A stretch of 23,852 nt of DNA, taken from a virus (lineage: Duplodnaviria; Heunggongvirae; Uroviricota; Caudoviricetes). Below are positions 1-17,222 of the stretch, in pieces; the stretch's first letter is position 1, and every line of letters starts with the position of its first letter. The DNA lies in the IMG/VR virus record IMGVR_UViG_2585427740_000001, one strand, 5' to 3'. Both the position numbers and the translations under genes were made by a program. The notes below the pieces were generated by a model. It was not told where the DNA came from and made no database searches. It saw only the letters and a program-made list of their open reading frames with translations.

Positions 1-1284
1 TTACTTCTTCGCCTCTGCAACCACTTTACTACCCACGCCGCGGTTATTGTATTCCCACATGCGGTTGTAGTTAGTGTCATTCAGATTGCGCTGTATTTCG
101 TCGTTATCATCTACGCTGCCGGTATTACCCGCAAACGGACGATTAGAGATCACCGCATCGGCCCACGGTTTAGCCGTGTTAAAACCTTCGTTGATGGCGC
201 TATCACGGATCACCACCTGACCGTTGGTATTGGCATCAACATCCAGCGAGCGGCCCAGTTGCGCCACACCATCACCGAAAGCATTGAAACGGCTGTTTAC
301 GGCGAGGAAACCGTAGTAAATGTTGGACAGCGTAGCCGGTGCAAACACATACGCTTCTTGCTGAGTACGTGAGTTCACCACGCGGAATTCGGTGTTATCG
401 AACACCACTGCGCCGCGACCAGAAACGATATCCACATCCCCTTCAATGTAGCTGTTGGTCACCAGCGTACGCGGCTGACGATTTGTTTCCAGACGGTTCT
501 GCACACCGCTGTTGGTGACAAAGAAGGTGTTCTGACGACCGAGAATGTTAACGTTGTTAATCTGTACCTGGTCACCATCAGTACGCAGTGCCACCGCCGG
601 ATGGTTACCTGCATCTACGCTATCGCCCAGCGTGTTTTCGATGGTCAGATTTTGCAGTTGCAGGCCATTGTTTTGTGACCAGAAGACCGCAGAGCAGAGA
701 ACACCGATACTGTCGCTGCGTTTGCTCTGGCAGCTATCGTACATATACCACGCTGGTTTACCTGGCATATATTTGCCGCGCGGGTTGACGTCGTGACGCC
801 AGTCGGCAGGGCTCATGCCACCATCAAGGGAAAGCCCAATCTTCACATCAATCGGTTTTTCACCTGTACCGTACAGAGTAATTCCACCCGGAGCGGCAGG
901 GACATATACCGTTCCCTGATACTCACCAGGCATCACGGCAATATACTGGCGCTTGTTGGTACGCTTGATAATTGCCGCATCTACCGCCGCCTGAATCGTG
1001 GTATGCGTTACACCTTGAGTGCCCGCCGGGCCGACAACAAAGTCAGGTTGCGCAGGCAGGGTAATCGGGGAAGGATTCCACGCTGCAGCACCTGGTGTCA
1101 GGGATGCAAAATAGTGTTGAGCATCGAAATTCTGCGCTTCTTTTGCCGACAGAATCGGGCGAGAAGAGGTACCAGGCGCGGTTTGATCAGAAGGACGTTG
1201 ATCGGGCGGGGTTGAGCTACAGGCGGTCAGCGTCACGCCAAAAGCCAATGCCAGCGCCAGACGGGAAACTGAAAATGTGTTCAC
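1..1284 (-). CDS. ybhC: YbhC-like outer-membrane lipoprotein (pectinesterase / acyl-CoA thioesterase family); chromosomal flank of the lambda attachment site
   Basis: 427-aa ORF complete in window (stop at 1-3). N-terminal signal peptide with lipobox LTAC. Sequence recalled as E. coli YbhC, which borders attB-lambda. Confidence 0.88.
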   Translation of the reverse strand: MNTFSVSRLALALAFGVTLTACSSTPPDQRPSDQTAPGTSSRPILSAKEAQNFDAQHYFASLTPGAAAWNPSPITLPAQPDFVVGPAGTQGVTHTTIQAAVDAAIIKRTNKRQYIAVMPGEYQGTVYVPAAPGGITLYGTGEKPIDVKIGLSLDGGMSPADWRHDVNPRGKYMPGKPAWYMYDSCQSKRSDSIGVLCSAVFWSQNNGLQLQNLTIENTLGDSVDAGNHPAVALRTDGDQVQINNVNILGRQNTFFVTNSGVQNRLETNRQPRTLVTNSYIEGDVDIVSGRGAVVFDNTEFRVVNSRTQQEAYVFAPATLSNIYYGFLAVNSRFNAFGDGVAQLGRSLDVDANTNGQVVIRDSAINEGFNTAKPWADAVISNRPFAGNTGSVDDNDEIQRNLNDTNYNRMWEYNNRGVGSKVVAEAKK

Positions 1285-1330
1285 AGGTTGCTCCGGGCTA
1301 TGAAATAGAAAAATGAATCCGTTGAAGCCT

Positions 1331-1418
1331 GCTTTTTTATACTAAGTTGGCATTATAAAAAAGCATTGCTTATCAATTTGTTGCAACGAACAGGTCACTA
1401 TCAGTCAAAATAAAATCA
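1331..1418. other. attL: lambda-type attL: 15-bp common core GCTTTTTTATACTAA (1331-1345) followed by the P' arm with arm-type Int sites, running up to the int stop codon
   Basis: Exact lambda att core read directly in the sequence. The downstream AT-rich arm (GTTGGCATTATAAAAAAGCATTGCTTATCAATTTGTTGCAACGAACAGGTCACTATCAGTCAAAATAAAATCATTATTTG) matches the recalled attP P' arm. The bacterial side is contiguous with the ybhC 3' flank. Confidence 0.9.
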
Positions 1419-2489
1419 TTATTTGATTTCAATTTTGTCCCACTCCCTGCCTCTGTCATCACGATACTGTGATGCCATGGTGTCCGACTTATGCCCGAGA
1501 AGATGTTGAGCAAATTTATCGCTTATCTGCTTCTCATAGAGTCTTGCAGACAAACTGCGCAACTCGTGAAAGGTTGGCGGATCCCCTTCGAAGGAGAGAC
1601 CTGATGCTTTTCGTGCGCGCATAAAATACCTTGATACTGTGCCGGATGAAAGCGGTTCACGACGAGTAGATGCAATTATGGTTTCTCCGCCAAGAATCTT
1701 TTTGCATTTATCAAGTGTTTCCTTCATTGATATCCCGAGAGCATCAACATGCAATGTTGTTGGGATGGCAATTTTTACGCCTGTTTTGCTTTGCTCGACA
1801 TAAAGATATCCATCTACGATATCAGACCACTTCATTTCGCATAAATCACCAACTCGCTGCCCGGTAACAACAGCCAGTTCCATTGCAAGTCTAAGCCAAC
1901 ATGGTGATGATTCTGCTGCTTGATAAATTTTCAGGTATTCGTCAGCCGTAAGTCTTGATCTCCTTACCTCTGATTTTGCAGCGCGAGTGGCTGCGACCGG
2001 GTTTGTTGTTATATGGCCTTCAGCCATAGCCTCTCGGAATGCATCGCTCAGTGTTGATCTGATTAACTTGGCTGATGCCGCCTTTCCCTCGTCTATGTAT
2101 CCATTGAGCATTGCCGCAATTTCTTTTGTGGTGATGTCTTCAAGTGGAGCATCAGGCAGACCCCTCCTTATTGCTTTAATTTTGCTCATGTAATTTATGA
2201 GTGTCTTCTGCTTGATTCCTCTGCTGGCCAGGATTTTTTCGTAGCGATCAAGCCATGAATGTAACGTAACGGAATTATCACTGTTGATTCTCGCTGTCAG
2301 AGGCTTGTGTTTGTGTCCTGAAAATAACTCAATGTTGGCCTGTATAGCTTCAGTGATTGCGATTCGCCTGTCTCGGCCTAATCCAAACTCTTTACCCGTC
2401 CTTGGGTCCCTGTAGCAGTAATATCCATTGTTTCTTATATAAAGGTTAGGGGGTAAATCCCGGCGCTCATGACTTCGCCTTCTTCCCAT
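1419..2489 (-). CDS. int: Phage lambda integrase (tyrosine recombinase)
   Basis: 356-aa ORF whose translation (MGRRRSHERRDLPPNLYIRNNGYY...) matches lambda Int as recalled. Sits adjacent to attL P' arm and overlaps xis. Confidence 0.97.
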   Translation of the reverse strand: MGRRRSHERRDLPPNLYIRNNGYYCYRDPRTGKEFGLGRDRRIAITEAIQANIELFSGHKHKPLTARINSDNSVTLHSWLDRYEKILASRGIKQKTLINYMSKIKAIRRGLPDAPLEDITTKEIAAMLNGYIDEGKAASAKLIRSTLSDAFREAMAEGHITTNPVAATRAAKSEVRRSRLTADEYLKIYQAAESSPCWLRLAMELAVVTGQRVGDLCEMKWSDIVDGYLYVEQSKTGVKIAIPTTLHVDALGISMKETLDKCKKILGGETIIASTRREPLSSGTVSRYFMRARKASGLSFEGDPPTFHELRSLSARLYEKQISDKFAQHLLGHKSDTMASQYRDDRGREWDKIEIK

Positions 2490-2685
2490 TTCTGATCCTC
2501 TTCAAAAGGCTACCTGTTACTGGTCGATTTAAGTCAACCTTTACCGCTGATTCGTGGAACAGATATTCTCTTCCATCCTTAACCGGAGGAGGGAATATCC
2601 TGCATTCGCGCACCCATCGACGAACTGTTTCAAGGCTTCTTGGGCGTCGCTGGCGAGCGTTCCACTCCTGAAGTGTCAAGTACAT
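2467..2685 (-). CDS. xis: Excisionase Xis
   Basis: 72-aa ORF (MYLTLQEWNARQRRPRSLETVRRWVRE...) matching lambda Xis as recalled. 23-nt overlap with int start, as in lambda. Confidence 0.95.
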   Translation of the reverse strand: MYLTLQEWNARQRRPRSLETVRRWVRECRIFPPPVKDGREYLFHESAVKVDLNRPVTGSLLKRIRNGKKAKS

Positions 2686-2724
2686 CGCAAAGTCTCCGCA
2701 ATTACACGCAAGAAAAAACCGCCA

Positions 2725-2892
2725 TCAGGCGGCTTGGTGTTCTTTCAGTTCTTCAATTCGAATATTGGTTATGTCTGCATGTGCTATCTGCGCCCATATC
2801 ATCCAGTGGTCATAGCAGTCATTGATGTTCTCTGCTTCGATAACTCTGTTGAATGGTTCTCCATTCCATTCACCTGTGACTCGGAAGTGCAT
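2725..2892 (-). CDS. Small hypothetical protein (55 aa) directly upstream of xis
   Basis: ATG at 2892 preceded by GGAG 8 nt upstream. Below the 60-aa ORF-track cutoff; found by hand translation (MHFRVTGEWNGEPFNRVIEAENINDCYDHWMIWAQIAHADITNIRIEELKEHQAA). Confidence 0.45.
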   Translation of the reverse strand: MHFRVTGEWNGEPFNRVIEAENINDCYDHWMIWAQIAHADITNIRIEELKEHQAA

Positions 2893-2974
2893 TTATCATC
2901 TCCATAAAACAAAACTCGCCGTAGCGAGTTCAGATATAATTTCCACCAAAGGCAGTAGTTGCTGATGCTAAGAA

Positions 2975-3403
2975 TTATTCAATATCTATTCCTGTAATAT
3001 CTTTTATCTTTTTCCTTGCAAAGCCTTTTGCTAGTGATTTTGAAACACTTATTAGTGTACTAATTCCCTCATCCTTAAAGTTTGTTTTTATAGTTTGCCA
3101 GACCTCCTTTTGACGCAAGTCAGCAATAAAATCATGCCCTCTTGCTGTCAACCTCAGTGGTACTTCGATCCAACTATATCCAACACCTTCCCCTAACTCG
3201 TTGGACATTATATGACCGAACCCAGGTTTTCCATCAACCCTGACTATTAATTCGTAGTCGCATAATAATCGCATATGGAAAATAAAATTTTGGTCATATC
3301 TATTAAAGCCATTATCCTCTAGTTCACTAAGCATCGTGTCAGGGCCATGAGTTTTTTCGAATGCGATAAGTAGATCTTTTAGATATTGCTGGTCTAATTT
3401 CAT
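2975..3403 (-). CDS. Hypothetical protein, 142 aa, AT-rich orphan gene in the xis-exo accessory region
   Basis: Clean ORF with GGAGG 7 nt upstream of ATG. Composition more AT-rich than the flanking int/xis. No family recognised. Confidence 0.7.
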   Translation of the reverse strand: MKLDQQYLKDLLIAFEKTHGPDTMLSELEDNGFNRYDQNFIFHMRLLCDYELIVRVDGKPGFGHIMSNELGEGVGYSWIEVPLRLTARGHDFIADLRQKEVWQTIKTNFKDEGISTLISVSKSLAKGFARKKIKDITGIDIE

Positions 3404-3431
3404 TGCCGCCTCCGTGACATGTCACAGAGAT

Positions 3432-3770
3432 TTATATCATTAATTTTGTTTCGTGCCAGCCTTTGGTCACCCAGCATTGTGAGTCACCATTACACGGGCA
3501 TGAATTAACAGGAACTCTCTCGCCGCACTTACCGCAACGTTTTCTGCTGATCGATTTTATACGCCAGCGCACACGTGCATCATCCTGGCGGCTCAGTAAC
3601 GCGATGTACTCACCAAACTCGTAAGGCGCATGCCTGAAGCGGCGCGTGGCTCAGTTACGATCCAGCATTTCAATTTCCTGAGCATCAAGTACAAGCTCCA
3701 GCTTACGCATACCGGATGATGCTTGCTTGGCTCTCTGATCGACTTTGCGCTCTGCTGATGATTTAGCCAT
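3432..3770 (-). pseudogene. Small ORF interrupted by an in-frame TGA: 39 codons (3651-3770), opal stop, then 71 further in-frame codons (Cys-rich, CxxC...CxC) ending at TAA 3432-3434
   Basis: Hand translation of the minus strand: MAKSSAERKVDQRAKQASSGMRKLELVLDAQEIEMLDRN*ATRRFRHAPYEFGEYIALLSRQDDARVRWRIKSISRKRCGKCGERVPVNSCPCNGDSQCWVTKGWHETKLMI. AGGA-type RBS before the ATG. Confidence 0.35.
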
Positions 3771-3965
3771 TCTGCTTTTCCTGCATTAGGAGAAAGACAA
3801 TCATGGCGGCGCGGATACTTCCGGTATCTTTTTACTCGATATTACCCTTCAATGGCACATACAAGAAGAGAGCCATCAACAGGAGTGAGTGAGGAATCGA
3901 CAACCAGCAACGCTTAATTATCTATAGTGTCGTATTTGCTTCATAAAATATGGCGAATAACACAA

Positions 3966-3999
3966 AGCCCGCAGCAGCTCATTGTGCGGGCTTTTCTTA
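3966..3999 (+). terminator. Stem-loop (AGCCCGCA / TGCGGGCT, 8-bp stem) followed by TTTCTTAT; candidate intrinsic terminator
   Basis: Inverted repeat 3966-3973 / 3984-3991 with T-rich tail, read directly. Lies between the 4064-4679 gene and the small ORFs at 3432-3770. Confidence 0.4.
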
Positions 4000-4063
4000 T
4001 ACATACTTCCTAGAGATAATTCTATGGAGGCATTAAATTAATACTGTCATTGGTAATATCATA

Positions 4064-4679
4064 TTATCTAAAAGTCTTTCCACTTTTAACGTCTAGGTAT
4101 ATTCTGTTCGACAACGTCATTCCTCCGCAATATGTGAAATAGATGTTTTTCCCCTTATTGCTTGATGCCATCCACCCTCCGATTTCCTTAAAGTCGCTTT
4201 CCGTGCAGACCCCTTCGTTTATTAACTTCCTAGCTGCCGAAGAAAACTCTTTTTTGTATATACGGTAGTCATCAGATCCTTTGATTAAAGTATCATCTCC
4301 GCTCGCATTTTCAGCAGGATCTGATGGCCTTTCACTGCTAAGATCACTAAGTTTAACCCATTCTGAAAACTTGCCATTGACGATTCCGTTTTTTCTTGTG
4401 CAGGATTTATTACCTTCTTTAATATATTCGCTTTCCCCTCCCACACATGAGGCTGAATATGGCTCAGTTATACGAACCCATTCACCTTTTTTTTTCTAGA
4501 AAATCTACGCCTTCCCTGAAAAATAGTTTCCCAGCCACTCCACATTTACTTGAAGGGCAGGTATGTCTTTCCGTTCGATCAACAACAACCCAAAGTCTTG
4601 ATTCATTTTTTGCCATTGCCGATGGTATTTGAGATGAGACAATTAACGTAAGCCCTAAAATTAGTATTGATTTTTTCAT
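4064..4679 (-). pseudogene. Secreted protein gene (about 205 aa if intact) split by a frameshift inside an A9 homopolymer tract
   Basis: Upstream ORF (4482-4679) starts with a signal peptide (MKKSILILGLTLIVSSQIPSAMA) and has a good RBS. It ends at TGA just after nine consecutive A (plus-strand T9 at 4487-4495). The downstream ORF (4064-4444) continues open in the other frame through the tract; removing one A fuses them. Confidence 0.65.
4487..4495. repeat. Homopolymer tract (T9 on plus strand, A9 in the coding strand) at the frameshift point of the 4064-4679 gene
   Basis: Counted directly in the sequence. Confidence 0.9.
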
Positions 4680-4977
4680 TGTAATTTCCTTTTACTTTTT
4701 ACAAAGCGTTTAATCATGGCTGATTATCTTTAAGCGTAGTAACAGCCTTGTGCGAAACATGTTACCAAATCGCCATTTCAGTGTATCCGCAGTTAGGCTG
4801 CCACTTCAAGGATTCCTAATTACATGGTACGTAAGCGTAAAATCCCGTTGGTTGTCGGGTAATAACTCTGATCAAATCTCCCTTGTCTTTTGCTCTTACG
4901 TATGCAGCTCTTGTGTATTCAACCCAGGCCTCCAGTTCAGCAATACGCTTACTTCCATCCGAGATAACACCTTCTAC

Positions 4978-5229
4978 TCACGCTGCTCGTTGAGTTTTGA
5001 TTTTTGCTGTCTCCAGCTCAACACGCAGTTTCCTCACCGTTAGCGCAATATCCTCGTTCTCCTGGTCGCGGCGTTTGATGTACTGCTGGTTTCTTTCCCG
5101 TTCATCCAGCAGTGTCAGCACAATCGATGGTGTTACCAGCTCATGGAAAAGGTCCGCGTCAAATCCCCAGTTGTCATGCATTGCCTGCTCTGCCGCTTCA
5201 CGCAGTGCCTGAGAGTGAATTACGCTCAC
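4978..5229 (-). CDS. Hypothetical coiled-coil protein (83 aa to the first stop); the frame continues for 53 more codons after an in-frame TGA (to TAG at 4816-4818)
   Basis: GTG start overlaps the stop of the upstream TraR-like gene (GTGA overlap). Downstream region 4816-4977 is open in the same frame but has no start codon of its own. Confidence 0.5.
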   Translation of the reverse strand: MSVIHSQALREAAEQAMHDNWGFDADLFHELVTPSIVLTLLDERERNQQYIKRRDQENEDIALTVRKLRVELETAKIKTQRAA

Positions 5230-5447
5230 TTCGAACCTCTCTGTTTACTGATAAGTTCCAGATCCTCCTGGCAACTTGCACAAGTCCGACAACCCTGAAC
5301 GGCCAGGCGTCTTCGTTCATCTATCGGATCGCCACACTCACAACAATGAGTGGCAGATATAGCCTGGTGGTTCAGGCGGCGCATTTTTATTGCTGTGTTG
5401 CGCTGTAATTCTTCAATTTCTGATGCTGAATCAATGATGTCTGCCAT
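5226..5447 (-). CDS. TraR/DksA-family C4 zinc-finger protein (phage-encoded RNA polymerase-binding regulator family)
   Basis: 73-aa ORF with CxxC...CxxC spacing (CCECGDPID...CRTCASC) typical of the TraR/DksA C4 zinc finger. Confidence 0.8.
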   Translation of the reverse strand: MADIIDSASEIEELQRNTAIKMRRLNHQAISATHCCECGDPIDERRRLAVQGCRTCASCQEDLELISKQRGSK

Positions 5448-5545
5448 CTTTCATTAATCCCTGAATTGTTGGTTAATACGCTTGAGGGTGAATGCGAATA
5501 ATAAAAAAGGAGCCTGTAGCTCCCTGATGATTTTGCTTTTCATGT

Positions 5546-5761
5546 TCACCGTTCCTTAAAAACGCCGTTTAACATGCCGATTGCTAGACTTAAATGAGTC
5601 GGTGTGAATCCCATCAGCGTTACCGTTTCGCGGTGCTTCTTCAGTACGCTACGGCAAATGTCATCGACGTTTTTATCCGGAAACTGCTGTCTGGCTTTTT
5701 TGATTTCAGAATTAGCCTGACGGGCAATGCTGCGAAGGGCGTTTTCCTGCTGAGGTGTCAC
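5546..5761 (-). CDS. Hypothetical small protein (71 aa from GTG 5761; alternatively 93 aa from ATG 5827)
   Basis: ORF-track ORF 5546-5827. The GTG at 5761 overlaps the TGA of the upstream 27-aa peptide ORF (GTGA), suggesting coupling. The N-terminal 22 residues of the longer form look like out-of-frame translation of the peptide gene. Confidence 0.5.
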   Translation of the reverse strand: MTPQQENALRSIARQANSEIKKARQQFPDKNVDDICRSVLKKHRETVTLMGFTPTHLSLAIGMLNGVFKER

Positions 5762-5841
5762 TGAACAAGCCCCATGTCGGCAAGCATAAGCACACAGAAT
5801 ATGAAGCCCGCTGCCAGAAAAATGCATTCAGTGGTTGTCAT
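5758..5841 (-). CDS. Candidate 27-aa hydrophobic (single transmembrane) peptide MTTTECIFLAAGFIFCVLMLADMGLVQ
   Basis: ATG overlaps the TGA stop of the upstream 63-aa ORF (ATGA). Hydrophobic core of about 17 residues. Found by hand translation; below ORF-track cutoff. Confidence 0.35.
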   Translation of the reverse strand: MTTTECIFLAAGFIFCVLMLADMGLVQ

Positions 5842-6029
5842 ACCTGGTCTCTCTCATCTGCTTCTGCTTTCGCCACCATCATTTCCAGTTTTTGTGAAAG
5901 GGATGTGGCTAACGTATGAAATTCTTCGTCTGTTTCTACTGGTATTGGCACAAACCTGATTCCAATTTGAGCAAGGCTATGTGCCATCTCGATACTCGTT
6001 CTTAACTCAACAGGAGATGCTTTGTGCAT
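5838..6029 (-). CDS. Hypothetical protein, 63 aa, immediately downstream of exo in the leftward operon
   Basis: ORF with GAGG 6-8 nt upstream of ATG; same strand and spacing as the early-left operon genes. Confidence 0.55.
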   Translation of the reverse strand: MHKASPVELRTSIEMAHSLAQIGIRFVPIPVETDEEFHTLATSLSQKLEMMVAKAEADERDQV

Positions 6030-6180
6030 ACAGCCCCTCGTTTATTATTTATCTCCTCAGCCAGCCGCTGTGCTTTCAGTGGATTTCGGATAACAGAAAG
6101 GCCGGGAAATACCCAGCCTCGCTTTGTAACGGAGTAGACGAAAGTGATTGCGCCTACCCGGATATTATCGTGAGGATGCG

Positions 6181-6861
6181 TCATCGCCATTGCTCCCCAA
6201 ATACAAAACCAATTTCAGCCAGTGCCTCGTCCATTTTTTCGATGAACACCGGCACCATCTCGTCAAAACTCGCCATGTACTTTTCATCCCGCTCAACCAC
6301 GACATAATGCAGTCCTTCACGCTTCATACGCGGGTCATAGTTGGCAAAGTACCAGGCATCTTTTCGTGTCACCCACATGCTGTACTGCACCTGGGCCATG
6401 TAAGCCGACTTTATGGCCTCGAAACCACCGAGCCGGAACTTCATGAAATCCCGGGAGGTAAACGGGCATTTCAGCTCAAGGCCATTGCCGTCACTGCATA
6501 AACCATCGGGAGAGCAGGCGGTGCGCATACTTTCGTCGCGATAGATGATCGGGGATTCAGTAACATTCACGCCGGAAGTGAATTCAAACAGGGTTCTGGC
6601 GTCGTTCTCGTACTGTTTTCCCCATGCCAGCGCCTTAGCATTAACTTCCGGAGCCACACCGGTGCAAACCTCAGCCAGCAGGGTGTGGAAGTAGGACATT
6701 TTCATGTCAGGCCACTTCTTTCCTGAGCGGGGCTTGGCTATCACGTTGTGAACTTCTGAAGCGGTGATGACGCCGAGCCGTAATTTGTGCCATGCATCAT
6801 CCCCCTGTTCGACAGCTCTCACGTCGATCCCGGTACGCTGCAGGATAATGTCCGGTGTCAT
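6181..6861 (-). CDS. exo: Lambda exonuclease (Red-alpha)
   Basis: 226-aa translation ([30 protein letters not shown]...) matches lambda Exo as recalled. Confidence 0.97.
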
Positions 6862-7306
6862 GCTGCCACCTTCTGCTCAGTGGCTTTCTGTTTCAGGAAT
6901 CCAAGAGCTTTCACTGCTTCGGCCTGTGTCAGTTCTGACGATGCGCGAATGTCGCGGCGAAATATCTGGGAACAGAGCGGCAATAAGTCGTCATCCCATG
7001 TTTTGTCCAGGGCAATCAGCAGAGTGTTAATCTCCTGCATGGTTTCATCGTTAACCGGAGTAATGTCGCGTTCCGGCTGACGTTCTGCGGTGTATGCGGT
7101 ATTTTCGACAATGCGCTCGGCTTCATCCTTGTCATAGATACCAGCAAATCCGAAGGCCAGACGGGCACACTGAATCATGGCTTTATGCCGTAACATCCGT
7201 TTGGGATGCGACTGCCACGGCCCCGTAATTTCTCTGCCTTCGCGGGTTTTGAATGGTTCGCGGCGGCATTCATCCATCCATTCGGTAACGCAGATCGGAT
7301 GATTAC
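6858..7306 (-). pseudogene. bet: bet (Red-beta), 5'-truncated: only the C-terminal ~145 codons remain
   Basis: Translation from ...NHPICVTEWMDECRREPFKTREGREITGPWQSHPKRMLRH... to the C-terminus matches lambda Bet as recalled. The N-terminal ~115 codons are absent and the frame runs into ren-derived sequence on the opposite strand. Confidence 0.88.
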
Positions 7307-7426
7307 CGGTTCGCTACCAGGGAAGAACGGGAAGGAAAGGTGAGCACGAATCTGATTTTCAAGGAGTGTCGCCAGAGTGCCGCGATGAAGCGGGTGTTGG
7401 CATTTTATCGCGGCAATTTTCAATAG
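7304..7426 (+). pseudogene. ren: ren 3' fragment (last ~40 codons: YRFATREEREGKVSTNLIFKECRQSAAMKRVLAFYRGNFQ*)
   Basis: Plus-strand frame matches the recalled C-terminus of lambda Ren (...YYRFATREEREGKMSTNLVFKECRQSAAMKRVLAVYGVKR). It begins abruptly at the bet breakpoint. Confidence 0.7.
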
Positions 7427-7463
7427 ACTATGTACATAAAAATATCATTTTTTTAATACATGT

Positions 7464-7655
7464 CTAATTATTGGACGAAATTGGTTTTTGCTTTGGTTTA
7501 GTTAGCCTAGCAATCAAGCCAGAGGCAATAATGATGATCCAAGCAATTTGATGCAATGCTACTCCAATATAAGAACCTTTATAGATAATAAAGGCATAGA
7601 TCGCTAGAAACGAAATAAATATCCATAACGAAAGTTGATAAATTTTGGCGCGCAT
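7464..7655 (-). CDS. Possible small two-helix membrane protein (63 aa) in AT-rich insert
   Basis: ORF with two hydrophobic stretches; no convincing RBS; AT-rich DNA can yield spurious ORFs. Confidence 0.3.
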   Translation of the reverse strand: MRAKIYQLSLWIFISFLAIYAFIIYKGSYIGVALHQIAWIIIIASGLIARLTKPKQKPISSNN

Positions 7656-7911
7656 ATTTAATCCAATCAATCAGAAAGACGAGTAATCATAGAGGTACTA
7701 TCACCCGGGTAACTATTGCTATTATGAACGGATAGGATAGAGGCTTCAATAACATATGCATCAAGTATGATGGAATATGTAGGTGAAAATGACTTGTGTC
7801 AAATTTGTGGAAATGAGTACCATGTTTCTCTGAAATTGATGTCGTTAATGGCTAGTGATAGTGAACTTTTTTACTTTATAATTCCTTTGGTTATAACAAT
7901 AAGGTAAATTT

Positions 7912-8472
7912 ATGAAGAAGATAATATTATTAGCCATGATTATTGGTTCTTTAACAGGTTGCGCTAGTGTGCCACCATTGAATTTTTCAACACCTAACGT
8001 GGGAGTTAGCCAGAAAAAAATAGATGCTGAAATTAAGTCATTAACGGTATCACTTGCTCGTCCAGATGAGCAGAAAGGGGATATCACTGCTGGTATGGAG
8101 GCTATAACTCCAATTTGGCGTGAATCTTTGCAGGAAGCACTCGACCGAATGACTATTTTTCGTGATAGTTCACCAAATACGGTTAGCTTAAATGTTAAAG
8201 TGTTGGCTCTTGACGTTCCTGCTTTTGGTGTTTCAATGACAACTAAAGCAATTGCAAGGTATGAAATAATCAACCGTGCGAATGGTGATATTATATATAC
8301 GCAGGATATTGAGTCTACCGGTACTGTTCCAGCCAGTTACGCATTCTACGGTATTGTTCGAGCACGCGAATCTGTTAATCGCGCGGTGCAAAACAACATA
8401 ACGCAGTTCTTGCAAGCATTAGAAAGTGTTGATCTTTCTCGTCCAATGTTTCCTGTTAGGGTAGCTAAATGA
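7912..8472 (+). CDS. Lipoprotein, 186 aa (signal peptide with lipobox LTGC); function unknown
   Basis: MKKIILLAMIIGSLTGCAS... lipobox; AAGG RBS about 9 nt upstream. Stop overlaps the start of the next gene (ATGA). Confidence 0.8.
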   Translation: MKKIILLAMIIGSLTGCASVPPLNFSTPNVGVSQKKIDAEIKSLTVSLARPDEQKGDITAGMEAITPIWRESLQEALDRMTIFRDSSPNTVSLNVKVLALDVPAFGVSMTTKAIARYEIINRANGDIIYTQDIESTGTVPASYAFYGIVRARESVNRAVQNNITQFLQALESVDLSRPMFPVRVAK

Positions 8473-8921
8473 AGCGATTATTCGTAATTGCTCCACTCTT
8501 AGTGTTGGTTGGATGCGCACAAAATATATCGCCAAATAGTTATTCTGTTGGCTCTGTGGGCATGGTTAATCGAACTATCGCTGGTACAGTTATTAGTGCT
8601 AGGGGGGTTGATATCAGTGGGACTTCCGCGTTAGGCGGGACTGCTGGGGCTGCCGTGGGGGCAACCGCTGGTTCTGCGCTTGGTGGGGGAGTTCGTTCTA
8701 ATATCGTTGGTGCCGTTGGTGGTGCAGTCATTGGTGGTATTGCCGGGGCAGCAATCGAATCTTCAGCAACAAAACAAACAGGCATGGAATATGTTGTCGA
8801 AACTGAGAATGGGAATTTAATGACCATTGTTCAAGGCAAAGATCCGTTATTTACTCAAGGAAGTAAGGTCCTTGTTTTATACGGAAACCCTTCTCGCATA
8901 ATAACAGACCCGCGTCACTAA
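8469..8921 (+). CDS. SlyB/Pcp-like outer-membrane lipoprotein with glycine-zipper segment, 150 aa
   Basis: Lipobox LVGCAQ. Long Gly/Ala-rich zipper (GGTAGAAVGATAGSALGGGVRSNIVGAVGGAVIGGIAGAAIE) and a C-terminal region resembling SlyB as recalled. Translationally coupled to the upstream lipoprotein. Confidence 0.8.
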   Translation: MKRLFVIAPLLVLVGCAQNISPNSYSVGSVGMVNRTIAGTVISARGVDISGTSALGGTAGAAVGATAGSALGGGVRSNIVGAVGGAVIGGIAGAAIESSATKQTGMEYVVETENGNLMTIVQGKDPLFTQGSKVLVLYGNPSRIITDPRH

Positions 8922-9111
8922 CATACCTTTTGATTTTGTAAAATCAATTCGTAATAATAAAGTCATCGGAGCTTGAACAACTCCGGTGACTTCTGCGCTA
9001 AACGGGGACGTTTATGCGCACATACAATCCAAACTCTCTTCTCCCTTCACAGATGCAGAAATGCACCTGCGATTTTTTGCATCCAGCGTCTGACCTCTGC
9101 GGAGGTGAAGC

Positions 9112-9567
9112 GTGAACCTACCACAAGATGGCATCAAACTGCATCGCGGTAACTTCACCGCTATCGGCCAGCAGATCCAGCCTTATCTGGAGGACGGAAA
9201 ATGCTTTCGCATGGTGCTTAAACCGTGGCGTGAGAAACGCAGTCTTTCCCAGAATGCACTCAGCCACATGTGGTACAGCGAAATCAGTGAATACCTCATC
9301 AGCAGGGGGAAATCGTTCGCTACCGCAGCATGGGTAAAAGATGCTCTCAAACACACATACCTCGGTTATGAAACCAAGGACCTGGTTGATGTCGTAACCG
9401 GCGAAATCACTACTATCCAGTCGTTACGCCATACCTCCGATCTTGATACCGGAGAGATGTATATCTTCCTGTGTAAGGTTGAAGCCTGGGCGGTGAATAT
9501 TGGCTGCCACCTGACTATTCCGCAGAGCTGCGAGTTCCAGCAGCTCCGCGACAAACAGGAGGCGTAA
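9112..9567 (+). CDS. ybcN: NinB/YbcN-family DNA-binding protein
   Basis: 151-aa ORF from GTG with GGAGGTGA RBS. Translation matches DLP12 YbcN as recalled; sits in the NinB position of the nin region. Confidence 0.85.
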
Positions 9568-9737
9568 TGGCTACACCGCTTATTCGTGTCATGAACGGAC
9601 ACATCTACAGAGTACCAAATCGTCGTAAGCGTAAACCGGAGCTGAAGCCTTCCGAAATACCAACACTGCTCGGATATACCGCCAGCCTGGTTGATAAAAA
9701 ATGGTTGCGACTGGCAGCAAGGAGGAGTCATGGCTGA
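9567..9737 (+). CDS. ninE: NinE-family protein (56 aa)
   Basis: Hand translation [59 protein letters not shown] overlaps the ybcN stop (TAATG). Confidence 0.7.
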   Translation: MATPLIRVMNGHIYRVPNRRKRKPELKPSEIPTLLGYTASLVDKKWLRLAARRSHG

Positions 9738-10020
9738 TTTGAGAAAAGCAGCGCGTGGTCGGGAATGCCAGGTAAGAATCCCTGGCGTATGTAATGGCAA
9801 CCCTGAAACGTCTGTACTGGCACATATCCGGCTGACTGGATTGTGCGGCACCGGTACGAAACCGCCAGACCTGATTGCCACCATTGCATGTTCTGCCTGC
9901 CACGACGAAATCGACCGCCGCACACATTTTGTCGATGCTGCATATGCAAAAGAATGCGCGCTGGAAGGTATGGCGAGAACACAGGTTATCTGGCTGAAAG
10001 AGGGGGTTATTAAGGCGTGA
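9730..10020 (+). CDS. ybcO: YbcO-family protein (DUF1364, putative nuclease), 96 aa
   Basis: ORF-track ORF 9691-10020; likely start [14 protein letters not shown]... at ATG 9730 with AGGAGG upstream. Cys/His-rich motif. Matches DLP12 YbcO as recalled. Confidence 0.8.
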
Positions 10021-10379
10021 ATACCTACAGCATCACATTACCCTGGCCTCCGAGCAATAATCGCTATTACCGCCATAATCGCGGGCGCACACACATCAGC
10101 GCAGAAGGGCAGGCATACCGCGATAACGTCACCCGAATCATTAAAAACGCAATGCTGGATATCGGCCTGGCTATGCCAGTGAAAATCCGTATTGAGTGCC
10201 ACATGCCGGATCGCCGTCGCCGTGACCTGGATAATCTGCAAAAAGCCGCTTTTGACGCACTCACCAAAGCAGGTTTCTGGCTGGATGATGCTCAGGTCGT
10301 TGATTACCGCGTTGTGAAGATGCCTGTTACCAAAGGTGGGAGGCTGGAACTGACCATCACCGAAATGGGGAATGAATGA
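10017..10379 (+). CDS. rusA: RusA Holliday-junction resolvase
   Basis: 120-aa translation ([26 protein letters not shown]...) matches RusA as recalled. Confidence 0.95.
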
Positions 10380-10516
10380 TGTTTGAGTTTAATATGGCAG
10401 AACTTCTTCGCCACCGCTGGATGCGCCTGCGCTTATATCGTTTCCCCAGTTCTGTTTTGACCGATTACCGAATACTGAGGAATTACGCCAAAACCCTGAC
10501 AGGAGCAGGAGTATGA
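10376..10516 (+). CDS. ylcG: YlcG-family small protein (46 aa)
   Basis: Hand translation [49 protein letters not shown] overlaps the rusA stop. Confidence 0.6.
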
Positions 10517-10601
10517 AGTCAGAGATAACAATCAACTAATACTGTTTTATTGATTTTTGCTTGTAATTGGCGTTCTGGTCTGATTTTTGTGGAGTAAGTT
10601 G

Positions 10602-10985
10602 ATGCGTGATATTCAGATGGTTCTTGAGCGTTGGGGAGCGTGGGCGGCTAATAATCATGAAGATGTGACCTGGTCGTCCATTGCCGCCGGTTTTAAGGGA
10701 TTAATTACTTCAAAAGTAAAATCTCGCCCGCAATGTTGTGACGATGACGCGATGATCATTTGCGGGTGCATGGCCCGTCTGAAAAAGAACAACAGCGATT
10801 TGCACGATTTATTAGTAGATTATTATGTAGTCGGTATGACATTCATGTCACTGGCAGGTAAGCATTGCTGCTCTGATGGTTATATCGGGAAAAGGTTACA
10901 GAAGGCTGAGGGTATAATTGAAGGGATGTTAATGGCATTAGATATCCGGTTAGAGATGGATATCGTTGTTAATAACTCTAATTAA
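10602..10985 (+). CDS. Q: Late-gene antiterminator Q (QuuD-like, phage 82/21 type)
   Basis: 127 aa from ATG 10602 with GGAG RBS ([24 protein letters not shown]...). Matches DLP12 QuuD as recalled. Confidence 0.9.
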
Positions 10986-11102
10986 TATGCCAATTGTTTA
11001 CTAAAAATTATTAAAAATGGGGCGTTGAGACGCCCCCAAAAATAAAGGGTAATATATAACAGAAGGTTTATATAGTTAGAAGCAAGGTTGTGCTCCTAAA
11101 GG

Positions 11103-11165
11103 AAGTGGCTTGAGGGAGCCACTTATATGTTGGGGAGGCAAAGCCTCCCGCAACATATCTTTTAG
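11103..11165 (+). terminator. Two tandem stem-loops; the second (11125-11158, ~15-bp stem) is followed by CTTTTAG; candidate tR' of the late operon
   Basis: Inverted repeats AAGTGGCT/AGCCACTT and ATATGTTGGGGAGGC/GCCTCCCGCAACATAT read directly. Lies about 140 nt downstream of Q and just past the 3' end of the convergent porin gene. Confidence 0.5.
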
Positions 11166-11173
11166 TAATCAAA

Positions 11174-12256
11174 TTAGAACTGGTAAACCATACCTACAGC
11201 AACGATATCATCGGTAGCAACGCCAGATGCTTTCGTGAAATCGCTCTTATCAATCAGGTTGATTTTGTAATCAACAAAAGTGGACATATTTTTGTTGAAG
11301 TAATAGGTTGCACCTACATCAATATATTCAACCAGGTCCTGATCACCCCACGCACCCAAGTCTTTTCCTTTAGATTGCAGGTAAGCAACGGACGGACGCA
11401 GACCGAAGTCGAACTGATATTGTGCAACTACTTCGAAGTTTTGTGCTTTGTTGGCAATATGGTTATTACCAAAAACAGTCATGTTCTGGGTTTCAGAATA
11501 GGTGGTAGCCAGATAGATGTTGTTCGCATCATATTTCAGACCAGCTGCCCATACTTCAGCATTTTGACCAGATGCATTCAGGCTGTTGTTACCGTAGATA
11601 ACCTGATTATTAGTGCGGTCAGATTTAGCATAGGTTGCACCTACACCGAATCCTTCATACTCATAAGTAGTGGAGAAACCGAAACCATCACCATTAGCTT
11701 CAGTTACGTCAGTGCGGTCATTTTTACCCTGATACTGAGCAGCAAAGTTCAGACCATCAACCAGACCAAAGAAGTCATTGTTACGATAAGTTGCAACACC
11801 TGTGGTGCGACCAGTCATGAATACATCTGTTTGGGTCCAGGTATCGCCACCGAATTCTGGCAGAACGTCGGTCCATGCACCAATATCGTATGCTACACCG
11901 TAGTTACGGCCATAATCGATGGAGCCGTAGTCACCGAATTTCAGGCCAGCGAAGGCAAGACGGGTTTTATCTTTGGAGGAACCTTGAGATTCAGCGCGGT
12001 TGCCTTTGAATTCATATTCCCACTGACCGAAACCAGTCAGTTGATCGTTGATTTGGGTTTCACCTTTGAAGCCAAGACGGGCATAAGTAGTATCACCATC
12101 ATCTGCATCATTAGAGGAGAAGTAGTGCTTAGCATTAACTTTCCCGTACAGATCCAGCTTGTTACTGTCTTTATTATAAATTTCAGCTGCCTGAGCAGAC
12201 ATCGCCATCAGTACTGATGCAGCTACAGCAGAAATTGCCACTGTTAATTTTTTCAT
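11174..12256 (-). CDS. nmpC: General porin of the OmpC/OmpF/NmpC(Lc) family
   Basis: 360 aa from [23 protein letters not shown] (signal peptide) to the C-terminal ...VGMVYQF. Resembles NmpC/Lc as recalled. The ORF-track ORF extends 20 codons further upstream, judged spurious. Confidence 0.92.
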
Positions 12257-12682
12257 CGTGAGCCCTTTTTTTGAACTATTATTAAAAAATGATGTCACTG
12301 CGCGATAAATATTCATCTAATCAATGTGATTATTTCAAGATGTAAGTTTTGGTTTCTCATTTGATTTGTGAAGTAGATCTCTATTTTTATCTGAACTTTT
12401 TCTATCGAATCCTATTCATGGCTCTTGGCTGAATAAAAATAAATCTATTAGCCAATTTATATTAATGGCTGTTATTTATAAGTGCTCTATAATTTGAAGA
12501 TTCAATTTAAACCAGCTAAAAATAACGCTGGAAATTATTTGTTGGTTATTTGTTGAGATTTGCTTATGTATTTGTAGTGGTGTTTTCAATACTCGGTAGC
12601 ATTCTCGCAAATATCATTTAGTGGTTTACGTACGTAAAAAATTGGTTATGCTGTTAAGAGTGGTTACTTCGTCACACAGCTT

Positions 12683-12716
12683 AAACCCGCCGTCGAGCGG
12701 GTTTTTCCATTTTTTG
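12683..12716 (+). terminator. Intrinsic terminator-like hairpin (AAACCCGC-CGTCGA-GCGGGTTT) followed by TTCCATTTTTT
   Basis: Perfect 8-bp GC-rich stem and T-tract read directly. Lies in the AT-rich region between the porin start and S. Confidence 0.5.
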
Positions 12717-12843
12717 AGTCTCGATATTAGCTGATAACCCAATACCTGAGTTATTCACTGACTCCGAGTCTGTTACGTTTCTGCTTTTTTGCGATACGTT
12801 GTATTCCCTCAATTTACACCCGCTTTGTCTGCGAGGTGGGGTT

Positions 12844-13059
12844 ATGAAATCCATGGATAAGTTAACAACGGGTGTCGCCTATGGCACCTCAGCAGGTAGT
12901 GCCGGTTACTGGTTTTTACAGCTGCTCGATAAAGTCACGCCCTCACAGTGGGCAGCAATAGGTGTGCTGGGTAGCCTGGTATTTGGCCTGCTGACGTACC
13001 TGACAAACCTTTATTTCAAGATTAAAGAAGATAAGCGCAAGGCTGCGAGAGGTGAATAA
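12844..13059 (+). CDS. S: Class II holin (phage 21 S-type pinholin) with dual-start motif MKSMDK
   Basis: Translation [71 protein letters not shown] resembles S21 as recalled. Two Met codons three codons apart; two TM segments. Confidence 0.9.
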
Positions 13060-13556
13060 TGCCTCCATCATTACGAAAAGCCGTTGCTGCTGCTATTGGT
13101 GGCGGAGCAATTGCTATAGCATCAGTGTTAATTACTGGCCCAAGTGGTAACGATGGTCTGGAAGGTGTCAGCTACGTACCATACAAAGATATCGTTGGCG
13201 TATGGACTGTATGTCACGGACACACCGGAAAAGACATCATGCTCGGTAAAACGTATACCAAAGCAGAATGCAAAGCACTCTTGAATAAAGACCTTGCCAC
13301 TGTCGCCAGACAAATTAACCCGTACATCAAAGTCGATATACCGGAAACAACGCGCGGCGCTCTTTACTCATTCGTTTACAACGTGGGTGCTGGCAATTTC
13401 AGAACATCGACGCTTCTTCGCAAAATAAACCAGGGCGATATCAAAGGCGCATGTGATCAGCTACGTCGCTGGACATATGCTGGCGGTAAGCAATGGAAAG
13501 GTCTCATGACTCGTCGTGAGATTGAGCGTGAAATCTGTTTGTGGGGTCAGCAATGA
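13059..13556 (+). CDS. R: SAR endolysin (T4-lysozyme-like muramidase with N-terminal signal-anchor-release domain)
   Basis: 165 aa with a Gly/Ala-rich weakly hydrophobic N-terminus ([20 protein letters not shown]) followed by a lysozyme-like core. Start overlaps the holin stop. Confidence 0.92.
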
Positions 13557-14014
13557 ACAGAGTAACCGCGATTATCTCCGCTCTGGTTATCTGCATCATC
13601 GTCTACCTGTCATGGGCTGTTAATCATTACCGTGATAACGCCATTACCTACAAAGCCCAGCGCGACAAAAATGCCAGAGAACTGAAGCTGGCGAACGCGG
13701 CAATTACTGACATGCAGATGCGTCAGCGTGATGTTGCTGCGCTCGATGCAAAATACACGAAGGAGTTAGCTGATGCGAAAGCTGAAAATGATGCTCTGCG
13801 TGATGATGTTGCCGCTGGTCGTCGTCGGTTGCACATCAAAGCAGTCTGTCAGTCAGTGCGTGAAGCCACCACCGCCTCCGGCGTGGATAATGCAGCCTCC
13901 CCCCGACTGGCAGACACCGCTGAACGGGATTATTTCACCCTCAGAGAGAGGCTGATCACTATGCAAAAACAACTGGAAGGAACCCAGAAGTATATTAATG
14001 AGCAGTGCAGATAG
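13553..14014 (+). CDS. Rz: Rz inner-membrane spanin subunit
   Basis: 153 aa, N-terminal TM then coiled coil. ATG overlaps the R stop (ATGA). Confidence 0.85.
13773..13955 (+). CDS. Rz1: Rz1 outer-membrane lipoprotein spanin subunit, embedded in the +1 frame of Rz
   Basis: 60 aa with lipobox VVGCTS and proline-rich segment (PPPPPAW...PPPDW). AGGAG RBS 8 nt upstream. Lies entirely inside Rz. Confidence 0.8.
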
Positions 14015-16059: not shown

Positions 16060-16279
16060 CGGGTCCTTTCCGGCGATCCGACAGGTTACGGGGCGGCGAC
16101 CTCGCGGGTTTTCGCTATTTATGAAAATTTTCCGGTTTAAGGCGTTTCCGTTCTTCTTCGTCATAACTTAATGTTTTTATTTAAAATACCCTCTGAAAAG
16201 AAAGGAAGCGACAGGTGCTGAAAGCGAGCTTTTTGGCCTCTGTCGTTTCCTTTCTCTGTTTTTGTCCGTGGAATGAACA
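16060..16279. other. cos: cos site: cosN with 12-nt cohesive end GGGCGGCGACCT at 16091-16102, followed by cosB (terminase small-subunit binding region) up to the nu1 start
   Basis: Sequence ...CGACAGGTTACG GGGCGGCGACCT CGCGGGTTTTCGCTATTTATGAAAATTTTCCGGTTTAAGGCG... matches the recalled lambda genome ends joined at cos. Confidence 0.88.
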
Positions 16280-16795
16280 ATGGAAGTCAACAAAAAGCAG
16301 CTGGCTGACATTTTCGGTGCGAGTATCCGTACCATTCAGAACTGGCAGGAACAGGGAATGCCCGTTCTGCGAGGCGGTGGCAAGGGTAATGAGGTGCTTT
16401 ATGACTCTGCCGCCGTCATAAAATGGTATGCCGAAAGGGATGCTGAAATTGAGAACGAAAAGCTGCGCCGGGAGGTTGAAGAACTGCGGCAGGCCAGCGA
16501 GGCAGATCTCCAGCCAGGGACTATTGAGTACGAACGCCATCGACTTACGCGTGCGCAGGCCGACGCACAGGAACTGAAGAATGCCAGAGACTCCGCTGAA
16601 GTGGTGGAAACCGCATTCTGTACTTTCGTGTTGTCGCGGATCGCAGGTGAAATTGCCAGTATTCTCGACGGGATCCCCCTGTCGGTGCAGCGGCGTTTTC
16701 CGGAACTGGAAAACCGACATGTTGATTTCCTGAAACGGGATATCATCAAAGCCATGAACAAAGCAGCCGCGCTGGATGAACTGATACCGTTATGA
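16280..16795 (+). CDS. nu1: Terminase small subunit Nu1, C-terminally altered (171 aa; the last ~10 residues of lambda Nu1 are replaced by a single L and a stop)
   Basis: Translation MEVNKKQLADIFGASIRTIQNWQEQGMPVLRGGGKGNEVLYDSAAVIKWYAERD... matches lambda Nu1 through ...AALDELIP, then diverges at about 16789. Confidence 0.9.
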   Translation: MEVNKKQLADIFGASIRTIQNWQEQGMPVLRGGGKGNEVLYDSAAVIKWYAERDAEIENEKLRREVEELRQASEADLQPGTIEYERHRLTRAQADAQELKNARDSAEVVETAFCTFVLSRIAGEIASILDGIPLSVQRRFPELENRHVDFLKRDIIKAMNKAAALDELIPL

Positions 16796-16817
16796 GTTTA
16801 CGGATACGCTGGGGCTG

Positions 16818-17222
16818 GTGACGTCATTCAGCTATGCAGGAGACAAGAATCGCCAGCTGACCCATTACAGCGATACCCGCTGGCATGAAGATTCCGTTCG
16901 TAACCGCTGGTTCAGCGTAATGGCGGGGCCGTCTGTGCGCGTGAATGAATGGTTCAGCGCGTATGCGATGGCGGGTGTGGCTTACAGCCGTGTGTCGACT
17001 TTCTCCGGGGATTATCTCCGCGTAACTGACAACAAGGGGAAAACGCACGACGTGCTGACCGGAAGTGATGACGGTCGCCACAGCAACACGTCTCTGGCGT
17101 GGGGAGCTGGCGTGCAGTTTAACCCGACCGAATCCGTGGCCATTGATATTGCTTATGAAGGCTCCGGCAGTGGCGACTGGCGCACTGACGGTTTCATCGT
17201 GGGTGTCGGTTATAAGTTCTGA
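16818..17222 (+). pseudogene. lom: lom (Ail/Lom/PagC-family outer-membrane protein), 3' fragment lacking signal peptide and proper start
   Basis: C-terminal ...SVMAGP...AYAMAGVA...IAYEGSGSGDWRTDGFIVGVGYKF matches the lambda Lom C-terminus as recalled. Upstream sequence is nu1; no ATG or signal peptide. Confidence 0.85.

Follow-up and report, generated by a model that had tools for sequence, protein, structure and literature searches.

The window analysed here, a stretch of 23,852 nucleotides (23.85 kb), holds a cryptic lambdoid prophage of about 22.8 kb at the lambda attachment site of Escherichia coli, in which the 3' part of bet on the minus strand meets the 3' end of ren on the plus strand at positions 7302-7306. 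This joint is very probably an inert deletion scar. Mechanistically it is an ordinary prophage deletion scar, reflecting a well-known kind of decay, and it records with single-base precision the disarming of one E. coli prophage lineage. The junction in itself is of little weight; its wider interest lies in the early loss of immunity, the rapid independent erosion of the element, the parallel deletions in related prophages and a TA signature at the breakpoints.

The prophage and its bet-ren joint

The window matched the genome of E. coli PEC1009 (NZ_CP160468.1, 3103020-3126870, minus strand) at ~100%, and about 20 further complete genomes cover it at 88-100%. In PEC1009 the locus occupies the lambda attachment site, with ybhC on one side and ybhB/bioA on the other. 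Lambda homology sets in exactly at the attL core (lambda 27724), with window positions 1331-2940 corresponding to lambda 27724-29333, and the int-xis DNA is 97.9% identical to that of lambda. An attR-like core with one mismatch was found ~225 bp outside the window end in PEC1009, before ybhB, and together with the attL core at 1331 it gives a prophage length of about 22.8 kb. The principal features of the window are:

1331 to 1345, plus strand: attL core GCTTTTTTATACTAA, an exact match (0 expected by chance) that occurs once in the window
1419 to 2489, minus strand: int, intact, 356 aa (ORF; annotated by PGAP as tyrosine-type recombinase/integrase, WP_000533650.1)
2467 to 2685, minus strand: xis, intact, 72 aa (ORF; annotated by PGAP as excisionase, WP_001303849.1)
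6181 to 6861, minus strand: exo (lambda exonuclease), intact, 226 aa (ORF; Pfam YqaJ, E=5e-30; also annotated by PGAP)
6858 to 7306, minus strand: 3' part of bet, codons 114-261 and stop (PGAP "recombinase RecT, incomplete, missing N-terminus")
7302 to 7306: deletion junction with the kept copy of ATTAC, matched in lambda by 32469-32473 (bet side) and 40449-40453 (ren side)
7302 to 7426, plus strand: 3' part of ren, codons 58-97 and stop, in frame from 7304 (PGAP "protein ren, incomplete, missing N-terminus")
16784 to 16789: a second large deletion junction, from nu1/nohD (lambda ~700) to the 3' part of lom, with microhomology ATACCG

PGAP annotation of the identical PEC1009 locus lists int, xis, several b-region genes and exo in the left part, two hypothetical lipoprotein genes after the ren fragment, and then ybcN, ninE, ybcO, rusA, ylcG, quuD, a porin, essD, rrrD, rzpD, bor, ybcV, ybcW, ylcI and nohD, followed at the right end by a truncated lom, a tail fibre gene, tfa and an AraC-family regulator. 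Repressor and replication genes are absent from that annotation. The nu1-lom deletion has removed all head and tail genes, A to J, from the window, and cos (lambda position 1) is kept at ~16091. The element thus shows the features of a cryptic lambdoid prophage that we tested, namely att-core boundaries and the loss of repressor, replication and virion genes. It is a relative of DLP12 with a DLP12-like right arm. It is not DLP12 itself, which lies at argU and encodes IntD; the window element has the att-lambda site between ybhC and ybhB and a lambda-type Int. An Rfam scan of the whole window returned a single match, to IS009 at 20593-20791, far from the bet-ren junction.

Breakpoints were placed by BLAST and by base-by-base three-way alignments with PhiR30_1, strain 38, WCHEC035148, ATCC 8739 and lambda. 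A preliminary description of the window had stopped the minus-strand bet homology at about 7306 and put the breakpoint within a shared ATTAC. The alignments agree on both points: bet homology extends to 7306, ren homology on the plus strand begins at 7302, and the two overlap by the 5 bp ATTAC at 7302-7306. The lambda alignment of both breakpoints that it proposed yielded the two copies listed above. When positions 6700-7700 were compared by BLAST with the viable phage PhiR30_1 (PV340558.1), 6700-7304 matched exo-bet and 7302-7700 matched ren and downstream DNA at 100%. The left parental site reads ...GGATGATTAC up to the breakpoint, followed by GGTCC (strain 38, WCHEC035148, ATCC 8739 and lambda), the right parental site reads ...GGTGTATTAC followed by CGGTTCG, and the window reads GGATGATTACCGGTTCG across the junction. 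Every base of the joint is accounted for by the two parents, and there are no inserted bases. Lambda, WCHEC035148 and ATCC 8739 each carry ATTAC at the two parental sites, followed at the bet site by GGTCC; in PhiR30_1 the shared motif is ATT. Beyond the repeat itself the similarity continues imperfectly, as ATTAC[C]GGT. Microhomology of at least 5 bp occurred in 0.56% of random pairs of bet and P-ren breakpoints in simulation.

No IS element, att core or long repeat was found at the joint by the joint alignment, the att-core search or the Rfam scan of the window. On each side of the joint the sequence runs collinearly with PhiR30_1, NCTC9113, WCHEC035148 and lambda, without a change of orientation, and the deleted interval spans 6374 bp in PhiR30_1, 6643 bp in WCHEC035148 and 7980 bp in lambda.

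The two gene remnants were identified at the protein level. The bet fragment is identical at 147 of 148 positions to residues 114-261 of the 261-aa Bet, and matches Pfam RecT (E=8e-11) and PHROG 252, Bet-like, over profile positions 123-263 of 263. Residues 1-113 are absent, and the bet frame is closed by a stop 3 codons beyond the joint. The longest product that could be made runs from M123 to A261, 139 aa, encoded by an ATG-initiated ORF at 6858-7277 that overlaps the exo start by 4 bases. The bet remnant is a pseudogene fragment that has lost its N-terminal annealing domain and start codon, and is not functional. On the other side, the 40-aa plus-strand frame at 7304-7423, which had been read from the sequence as the end of Ren, is indeed that: 40 of 40 residues are identical to residues 58-97 of the 97-aa Ren of PhiR30_1, and the fragment matches PHROG 142, "Ren-like exclusion protein" (E=1.8e-15). 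A Pfam search with this 40-aa piece gave no match. The ren ORF is incomplete, with residues 1-57 missing; its DNA is 93% identical to lambda 40449-40548, and the whole interval 7302-9434 is 100% identical to phage PhiR30_1. Both pseudogenes, bet and ren, are already annotated by RefSeq.

The lost segment and the genomes that share the joint

DNA of the deleted interval, taken from three relatives, had no match elsewhere in the window, and neither had Gam, Kil, repressor, Cro, CII/YdaT, O, P or the cargo proteins adjacent to the repressor. The preliminary description had concluded that repressor, pL/pR and replication functions are gone while int, xis and attL are kept, and this holds, with the att core and both ORFs intact. 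The undeleted configuration that it suggested looking for was found in PhiR30_1, NCTC9113, WCHEC035148 and ATCC 8739. PhiR30_1, a viable phage, and the NCTC9113 prophage are undeleted, are integrated at argU with a different integrase, and have a right arm identical to that of the window over 7302-9434. The WCHEC035148 prophage lies at att-lambda with an intact early region, in the order int-xis-...-exo-bet-gam-kil-DUF3037-HipA-like kinase-S24 repressor-cro-YdaT-O-P-ren, and has the same lipoprotein genes downstream of ren as the window. The att-lambda remnant of ATCC 8739 carries the left arm of the window, at 99.94% over window positions 1-4736 with identical Int, Xis and DUF2513 proteins, and continues through an intact bet-gam-kil-cIII until an IS1-associated truncation. 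Z1323HEC0423, considered as a further bet truncation, proved to hold a prophage that is intact apart from an inserted IS100.

Loss of gam, kil and cIII from the window lineage is supported by this comparison, because ATCC 8739, with the same left arm, keeps them, and to this extent the original list of lost genes stands. Its N and rex were guesses based on lambda: the closest undeleted relatives have no rex beside the repressor, where they carry either DUF3037 and a HipA-family kinase or DUF6932 and a hypothetical protein. We found no undeleted genome with the exact alleles of the window on both arms, and the direct parent is a reconstruction from mosaic relatives, the left arm being 99.3-99.9% identical to ATCC 8739 and the right arm 100% identical to PhiR30_1.

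The simplest account is that illegitimate (homology-poor) recombination took place between two directly repeated ATTAC motifs, in bet and in ren, separated by 6.4-8 kb, with one copy retained and the intervening DNA lost. This would have removed the 5' part of bet, gam, kil and whatever else the pL operon carried, the repressor, pL and pR and the operators of both, cro, cII, O and the replication origin, P, and the 5' part of ren. Both early promoters, the killing functions and the replication genes would have disappeared along with the repressor, whose loss would therefore not have been lethal; the element would have been permanently locked, or "grounded". From the known circuitry, int, xis and attL, although intact as sequence, would be stranded, with pL gone and the cII needed for pI also gone; exo would be an intact ORF that has lost its promoter pL; Q and the lysis cassette would lack their feed from pR; and the scar region is predicted to be transcriptionally silent. 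The deletion fell early in the decay of the lineage, before the head and tail genes had been lost, with smaller deletions following later and independently.

Of 5426 complete E. coli genomes, 24 contain a 42-mer spanning the bet-ren junction, in one copy each and always on the chromosome, which makes it a clean clonal marker. An exact 32-mer scan of GTDB species representatives gave 0 hits, an uninformative result with one genome per species. On the left flank, 7 of the 24 carriers have exo and the bet remnant, as in the window; exo has been lost in 11, via two different deletions; and the remaining type, C (6 carriers), has lost the bet remnant while keeping window positions 7283-7306 and the joint, and therefore derives from the window type. 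The type C deletion removes 6836-7282 and ends 20 bp from the bet-ren junction.

Late-region deletions differ among the carriers. The window joins nu1 at 16789 to lom; FORC_081 and RM10410 share a junction from terminase A at 1050 bp to stf at window position 19046; VG48B2 joins A at 243 bp to tfa; and JNQH497 joins nu1 at 16640 to stf at 17531, deleting across the nu1-lom junction. The VG48B2 interval contains that of FORC_081, and the JNQH497 interval contains that of the window, so these two deletions may be derived from the FORC_081 and window types, respectively. The window and FORC_081 intervals overlap without nesting, and are thus independent events that came after the common bet-ren deletion. 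This shows that the early-region deletion preceded the late-region ones, and that the ancestor with the bet-ren joint still had nu1-A...lom-stf. In the window lineage, then, loss of the immunity and replication block preceded loss of the virion genes, which happened at least twice independently; in the sister lineage the order was the opposite. Over window positions 7283-13900 (6.6 kb), five carriers have 12 variable sites, all private, or 1-3 private SNPs per genome, and the SNP phylogeny did not resolve whether the lineages whose deletions end at 6831-6836 are monophyletic. The same five carriers have at least 9 distinct deletions. Deletions far outnumber point changes among carriers, a vivid deletional bias.

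These genomes also bear on other ways in which the joint could have formed. A single-step origin is likely, although one step and several nested steps are indistinguishable from sequence, and a net result of at least two nested deletions, for example a bet-P type followed by a larger one, is a less probable route to which we give low weight. Strain 38, also at att-lambda, has such a bet-P junction (561 bp of bet and 231 bp of P, ren intact, 6135 bp deleted at microhomology ACCA), which falls wholly within the interval deleted from the window, and secondary deletions beside existing junctions do occur in the lineage, as type C and the JNQH497 deletion across nu1-lom demonstrate. Strain 38 nevertheless belongs to another allele lineage: its flanks are 100% identical to WCHEC035148 at the junction and ~2.4% diverged from the window on both arms, and its junction was found in 1 genome only. 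No intermediate with window-type alleles was seen, and one junction with one microhomology is the simplest reading.

It is improbable that the joint arose by illegitimate recombination between two genomes, a resident att-lambda prophage supplying int to bet and a superinfecting or co-resident DLP12-like phage supplying ren to the tail. The closest relatives of the arms do differ, the left being the ATCC 8739 remnant and the right the PhiR30_1/NCTC9113 type found at argU. WCHEC035148, however, has both arm types and an intact early region in one att-lambda prophage, and on either side of the joint the genes run in exactly the order and direction of a single collinear lambdoid genome. Mosaicism of this sort normally comes from homologous exchange among lambdoid phages, and recombination between prophages at argU and att-lambda would delete ~240 kb of chromosome.

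Slightly less credible still is the proposal that the junction was kept because it is useful, for example through capture of the bet'-exo-xis-int operon by the promoter of the adjacent AT-rich moron or through production of the C-terminal domain of Bet (139 aa). On the minus strand, a promoter-like TTGACA-17-CATATT at 7802-7774 might drive transcription through the scar, with no terminator-like site on that strand between it and the bet remnant, and the ATG-initiated ORF at 6858-7277 exists. Promoter-like sites near the joint are at background level, with 4 found versus 3.0 expected in shuffled sequence, a terminator scan was likewise at background, and there is an in-frame stop just upstream of the 139-aa ORF. 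The bet remnant has been deleted in 6 of 24 carriers and exo in 11 of 24; both are dispensable, which argues against a selected new function. A sequencing or assembly artefact has a negligible probability, with the identical junction present in 24 independently sequenced complete genomes from varied hosts, countries and decades, including NCTC strains. We therefore retain the reading of the joint as an inert deletion scar, probably formed in a single step.

TA-centred junctions and reused breakpoints

We compiled 15 fully resolved deletion junctions from the att-lambda prophage family, the sister lineage and K-12 DLP12, which carry the following microhomologies:

bet-ren, window (B): ATTAC
bet remnant removed, RM10410 (C): CGGTA
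FORC_081, left arm: TA
JNQH497, left arm: GGT
RM10410, left arm: TGCC
VG48B2, left arm: TA
VG48B2, late region: TA
FORC_081/RM10410, late region: TAC
JNQH497, nu1-stf: GA
JNQH497, stf-internal: TA
bet-P, strain 38 (A): ACCA
nu1-lom, window: ATACCG
K-12, exoD-peaD: TA
K-12, xisD-exoD: TA
K-12, aaaD-tfaD: TAT

TA lies inside the microhomology at 11 of the 15 junctions, versus 7.3% of simulated deletions with at least 2 bp of microhomology (binomial P ~1e-9, or ~1e-7 allowing for 16 dinucleotides, in what is a small sample of 15 junctions). The K-12 aaaD-tfaD junction and the left side of the WCHEC035148 late junction were examined after the pattern had been noticed, and both fit. Three breakpoints have been used more than once:

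6831 to 6836: CGGTA^C, exo codon 9-10, used by three deletions in bet-ren carriers as 1 left and 2 right endpoints
19048 to 19051: GTAC (GGGTA^CC) in stf, intact in the window, the right endpoint of the FORC_081 late deletion and the JNQH497 stf-internal deletion
~16786 to 16789: GATA^CC in nu1, used in the window lineage and by an independent deletion starting there in the WCHEC035148 lineage

At the first of these, the FORC_081-type deletion removes 5572-6833 and the JNQH497-type deletion removes 5132-6831; the chance of a triple endpoint coincidence within 6 bp is 5e-5 to 3e-3. No direct or inverted repeats were found around 6760-6910, and a hairpin or quasi-palindrome at the reused exo breakpoint is thus unsupported.

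The flank C-S-K-T^A / TA-M-S-G is present at 11 of 20 sites versus 12.7% of all TA sites (P=8e-6, with the motif chosen post hoc), and C at -4 of T^A is present at 13 of 20 against a background of 0.43 (P=0.04). E. coli topoisomerase I cleaves T^A with C at -4 (PMC9352719), and the gyrase consensus, as given in the supplement of PMC6379681, has the centre GGTAT-NNNN-ATACC, with TA beside both scissile bonds. A comparison by hand with that consensus string, as the supplement gives it, put the left half-site at 18/70, equal to chance, and the right at 24/63, mildly raised. Topoisomerase I and gyrase might be regarded as candidate sources of the breaks, and we report the TA pattern itself as unexplained. 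It is conceivable, and we offer this tentatively, that the bet-ren joint is one case of enzyme-initiated prophage erosion, in which topoisomerase breaks at T^A were joined at the terminal TA, rather than of generic microhomology slippage. The short-repeat anatomy behind the original reading of a microhomology-mediated deletion is confirmed, and it is the wording that may be too generic for a junction carrying the TA-centred motif of its family.

Several other sources of the TA pattern were considered and set aside. IS1 pseudo-ends (GGTAAT/ATTACC) would place the breakpoints 1 nt off, and no IS is left behind; the IS5 target YTAR fits 3 of 16 four-mers; and the cleavage rules of RuvC and RusA fit poorly. 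Secondary sites of lambda Int do not account for DLP12, which has a different integrase and the same pattern, and no endpoint lies at att. A GTAC-specific restriction enzyme fits two sites only. If the TA signature and the reused breakpoints hold in a large survey, they would suggest that the breaks behind prophage erosion have a defined source.

Parallel deletions and known systems

The closest parallel at the same attachment site is the strain 38 prophage described above, a derivative of a WCHEC035148-type element, which resembles the window element in its att site, gene order, lipoprotein genes after ren, and a short-microhomology deletion from bet into the replication block. It differs in being an independent event in a lineage ~2.4% diverged, and one that lost its late region before the early region.

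A second parallel is provided by DLP12 of K-12, whose exoD'-'peaD junction, with ~6.7 kb deleted from exo into P, was found in 305 genomes. As in the window, leftward red genes stand head-to-head with the 3' end of the replication/ren block and the integrase is kept; DLP12 has lost bet, gam, kil, the repressor, cro, cII, O and most of P. Its right arm is the gene set of the window, ybcN-ninE-ybcO-rusA-ylcG-quuD-porin-essD-rrrD-rzpD-bor-ybcV-ybcW-ylcI-nohD-tfa-AraC regulator, its late region has also been deleted after nohD, and its junction microhomology likewise contains TA. The breakpoints, however, are in exo and P rather than in bet and ren, the element lies at argU with IntD rather than at att-lambda with a lambda-type Int, renD has its full length but is interrupted by IS3, only 2 bp of microhomology are shared, and the junction occurs in 305 genomes versus 24.

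The interval from the red genes to P/ren has thus been lost independently at least three times, in the window lineage, in strain 38 and in DLP12. From what is known of lambdoid regulation, a deletion that removes the repressor would be viable only if pL, pR, kil and O/P also go. Such a requirement would confine the endpoints to the flanking genes, and parallel losses would be as expected.

Spontaneous deletions between short direct repeats and the formation of lambda bio transducing phages are established instances of short-homology-dependent illegitimate recombination in E. coli. The bet-ren joint has the same anatomy, with direct short repeats, one copy kept, and no IS or att at the joint. 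The classical description of this process is not known to include a base-composition rule, whereas here 11 of 15 junctions bear TA and three breakpoints have been reused.

Pools of defective lambdoid prophages have been described (PMC2669165), and the concept of grounded or domesticated prophages puts the emphasis on elements that have lost att/int and retained immunity (PMC6379469). The window element resembles a grounded prophage in having become non-inducible by mutation and then been retained and eroded, but arrives at that state from the other side, keeping att, int and xis and having lost immunity.

Late-region deletion and recurrent breakpoints

The prophage in the window carries a second large deletion, in the late region (window 16091-17222), where nu1/nohD (lambda position ~700) is joined via ATACCG to the 3' part of lom, and through which the head and tail genes A-J were all lost. 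The cos site (lambda position 1) was kept at window ~16091, and lambda 1-700 matches window 16091-16789 at 99.3% identity.

Some deletion endpoints were used more than once. Among the sister genomes, which are the other carriers of the bet-ren junction, CGGTA^C at codons 9-10 of exo (window 6831-6836) is an endpoint of three different deletions, and GGGTA^CC in the tail-fibre gene (window 19048-19051) is an endpoint of two. Late-region deletions that arose independently in the window lineage and in WCHEC035148, a relative at att-lambda without the bet-ren deletion, both have their left endpoint at the nu1 site GATA^CC (window 16784-16789).

Across the prophage family of the window and the K-12 cryptic prophage DLP12, a TA lies inside the microhomology at 11 of 15 resolved deletion junctions, vs. 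7% expected; the loci giving these junctions were the window and the compared loci L001, L002, L003, L010, L011, L012 and L016. The context CSKTA/TAMSG is frequent around the TA in this set. Two E. coli enzymes are candidate sources of breaks at the TA junctions: topoisomerase I, which cleaves T^A where a C stands at -4, and gyrase, whose consensus has GGTAT-N4-ATACC at its centre.

Alternative decay and insertions in relatives

In ATCC 8739 (L009 9463-18353) the same prophage has decayed by a different route. Its left arm is identical to that of the window, with intact bet-gam-kil-cIII; an IS1 comes next, and from there rightwards to the attR side all DNA is missing. This strain also has a second IS1 insertion, at window position ~4736-4746. 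Z1323HEC0423 (L008 10659-13403) has an IS100 within bet, 34 bp away from the position of the window breakpoint, in an att-lambda prophage that is otherwise intact.

Accessory cassette and other elements of the window

Directly following the ren remnant is an AT-rich (32-41% GC) accessory cassette, or "moron" (window 7427-8921), which is 100% identical to the viable phage PhiR30_1. The first cassette gene is named "acyltransferase" in PhiR30_1, an unsupported label. The cassette features are as follows.

7464-7670, minus strand: hydrophobic ORF of 68 aa, absent from the PGAP annotation
7802-7774: promoter-like site TTGACA-17-CATATT, which goes with the 68-aa ORF
7912-8472: lipoprotein-like gene, PHROG 12521, overlapping the next
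8469-8921: lipoprotein-like gene, PHROG 13877, with weak glycine-zipper matches, overlapping the preceding gene

The sole Rfam match in the window is IS009 (RF02111; 218 bits, full length) at 20593-20791 on the plus strand, inside tfa (20250-20831) close to its 3' end and upstream of an AraC-family regulator. At least two substitutions and an indel of one base separate the window from PEC1009, its best database match (window 13082 and 13692). Downstream of quuD lies an OmpC/NmpC-type porin gene (window 11174-12256, minus strand), which is intact, whereas its counterpart in DLP12, nmpC, is interrupted by IS5.

Cargo beside the repressor

A two-gene cargo adjacent to the repressor varies among undeleted relatives (compared loci L007 9433-11818 and L006 9678-11854), encoding DUF3037 and a HipA-family kinase in WCHEC035148, and a hypothetical protein and DUF6932 in PhiR30_1 and the NCTC9113 prophage. 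It is possible that these gene pairs are defence or toxin modules. In lambda, by contrast, this position is occupied by rex.
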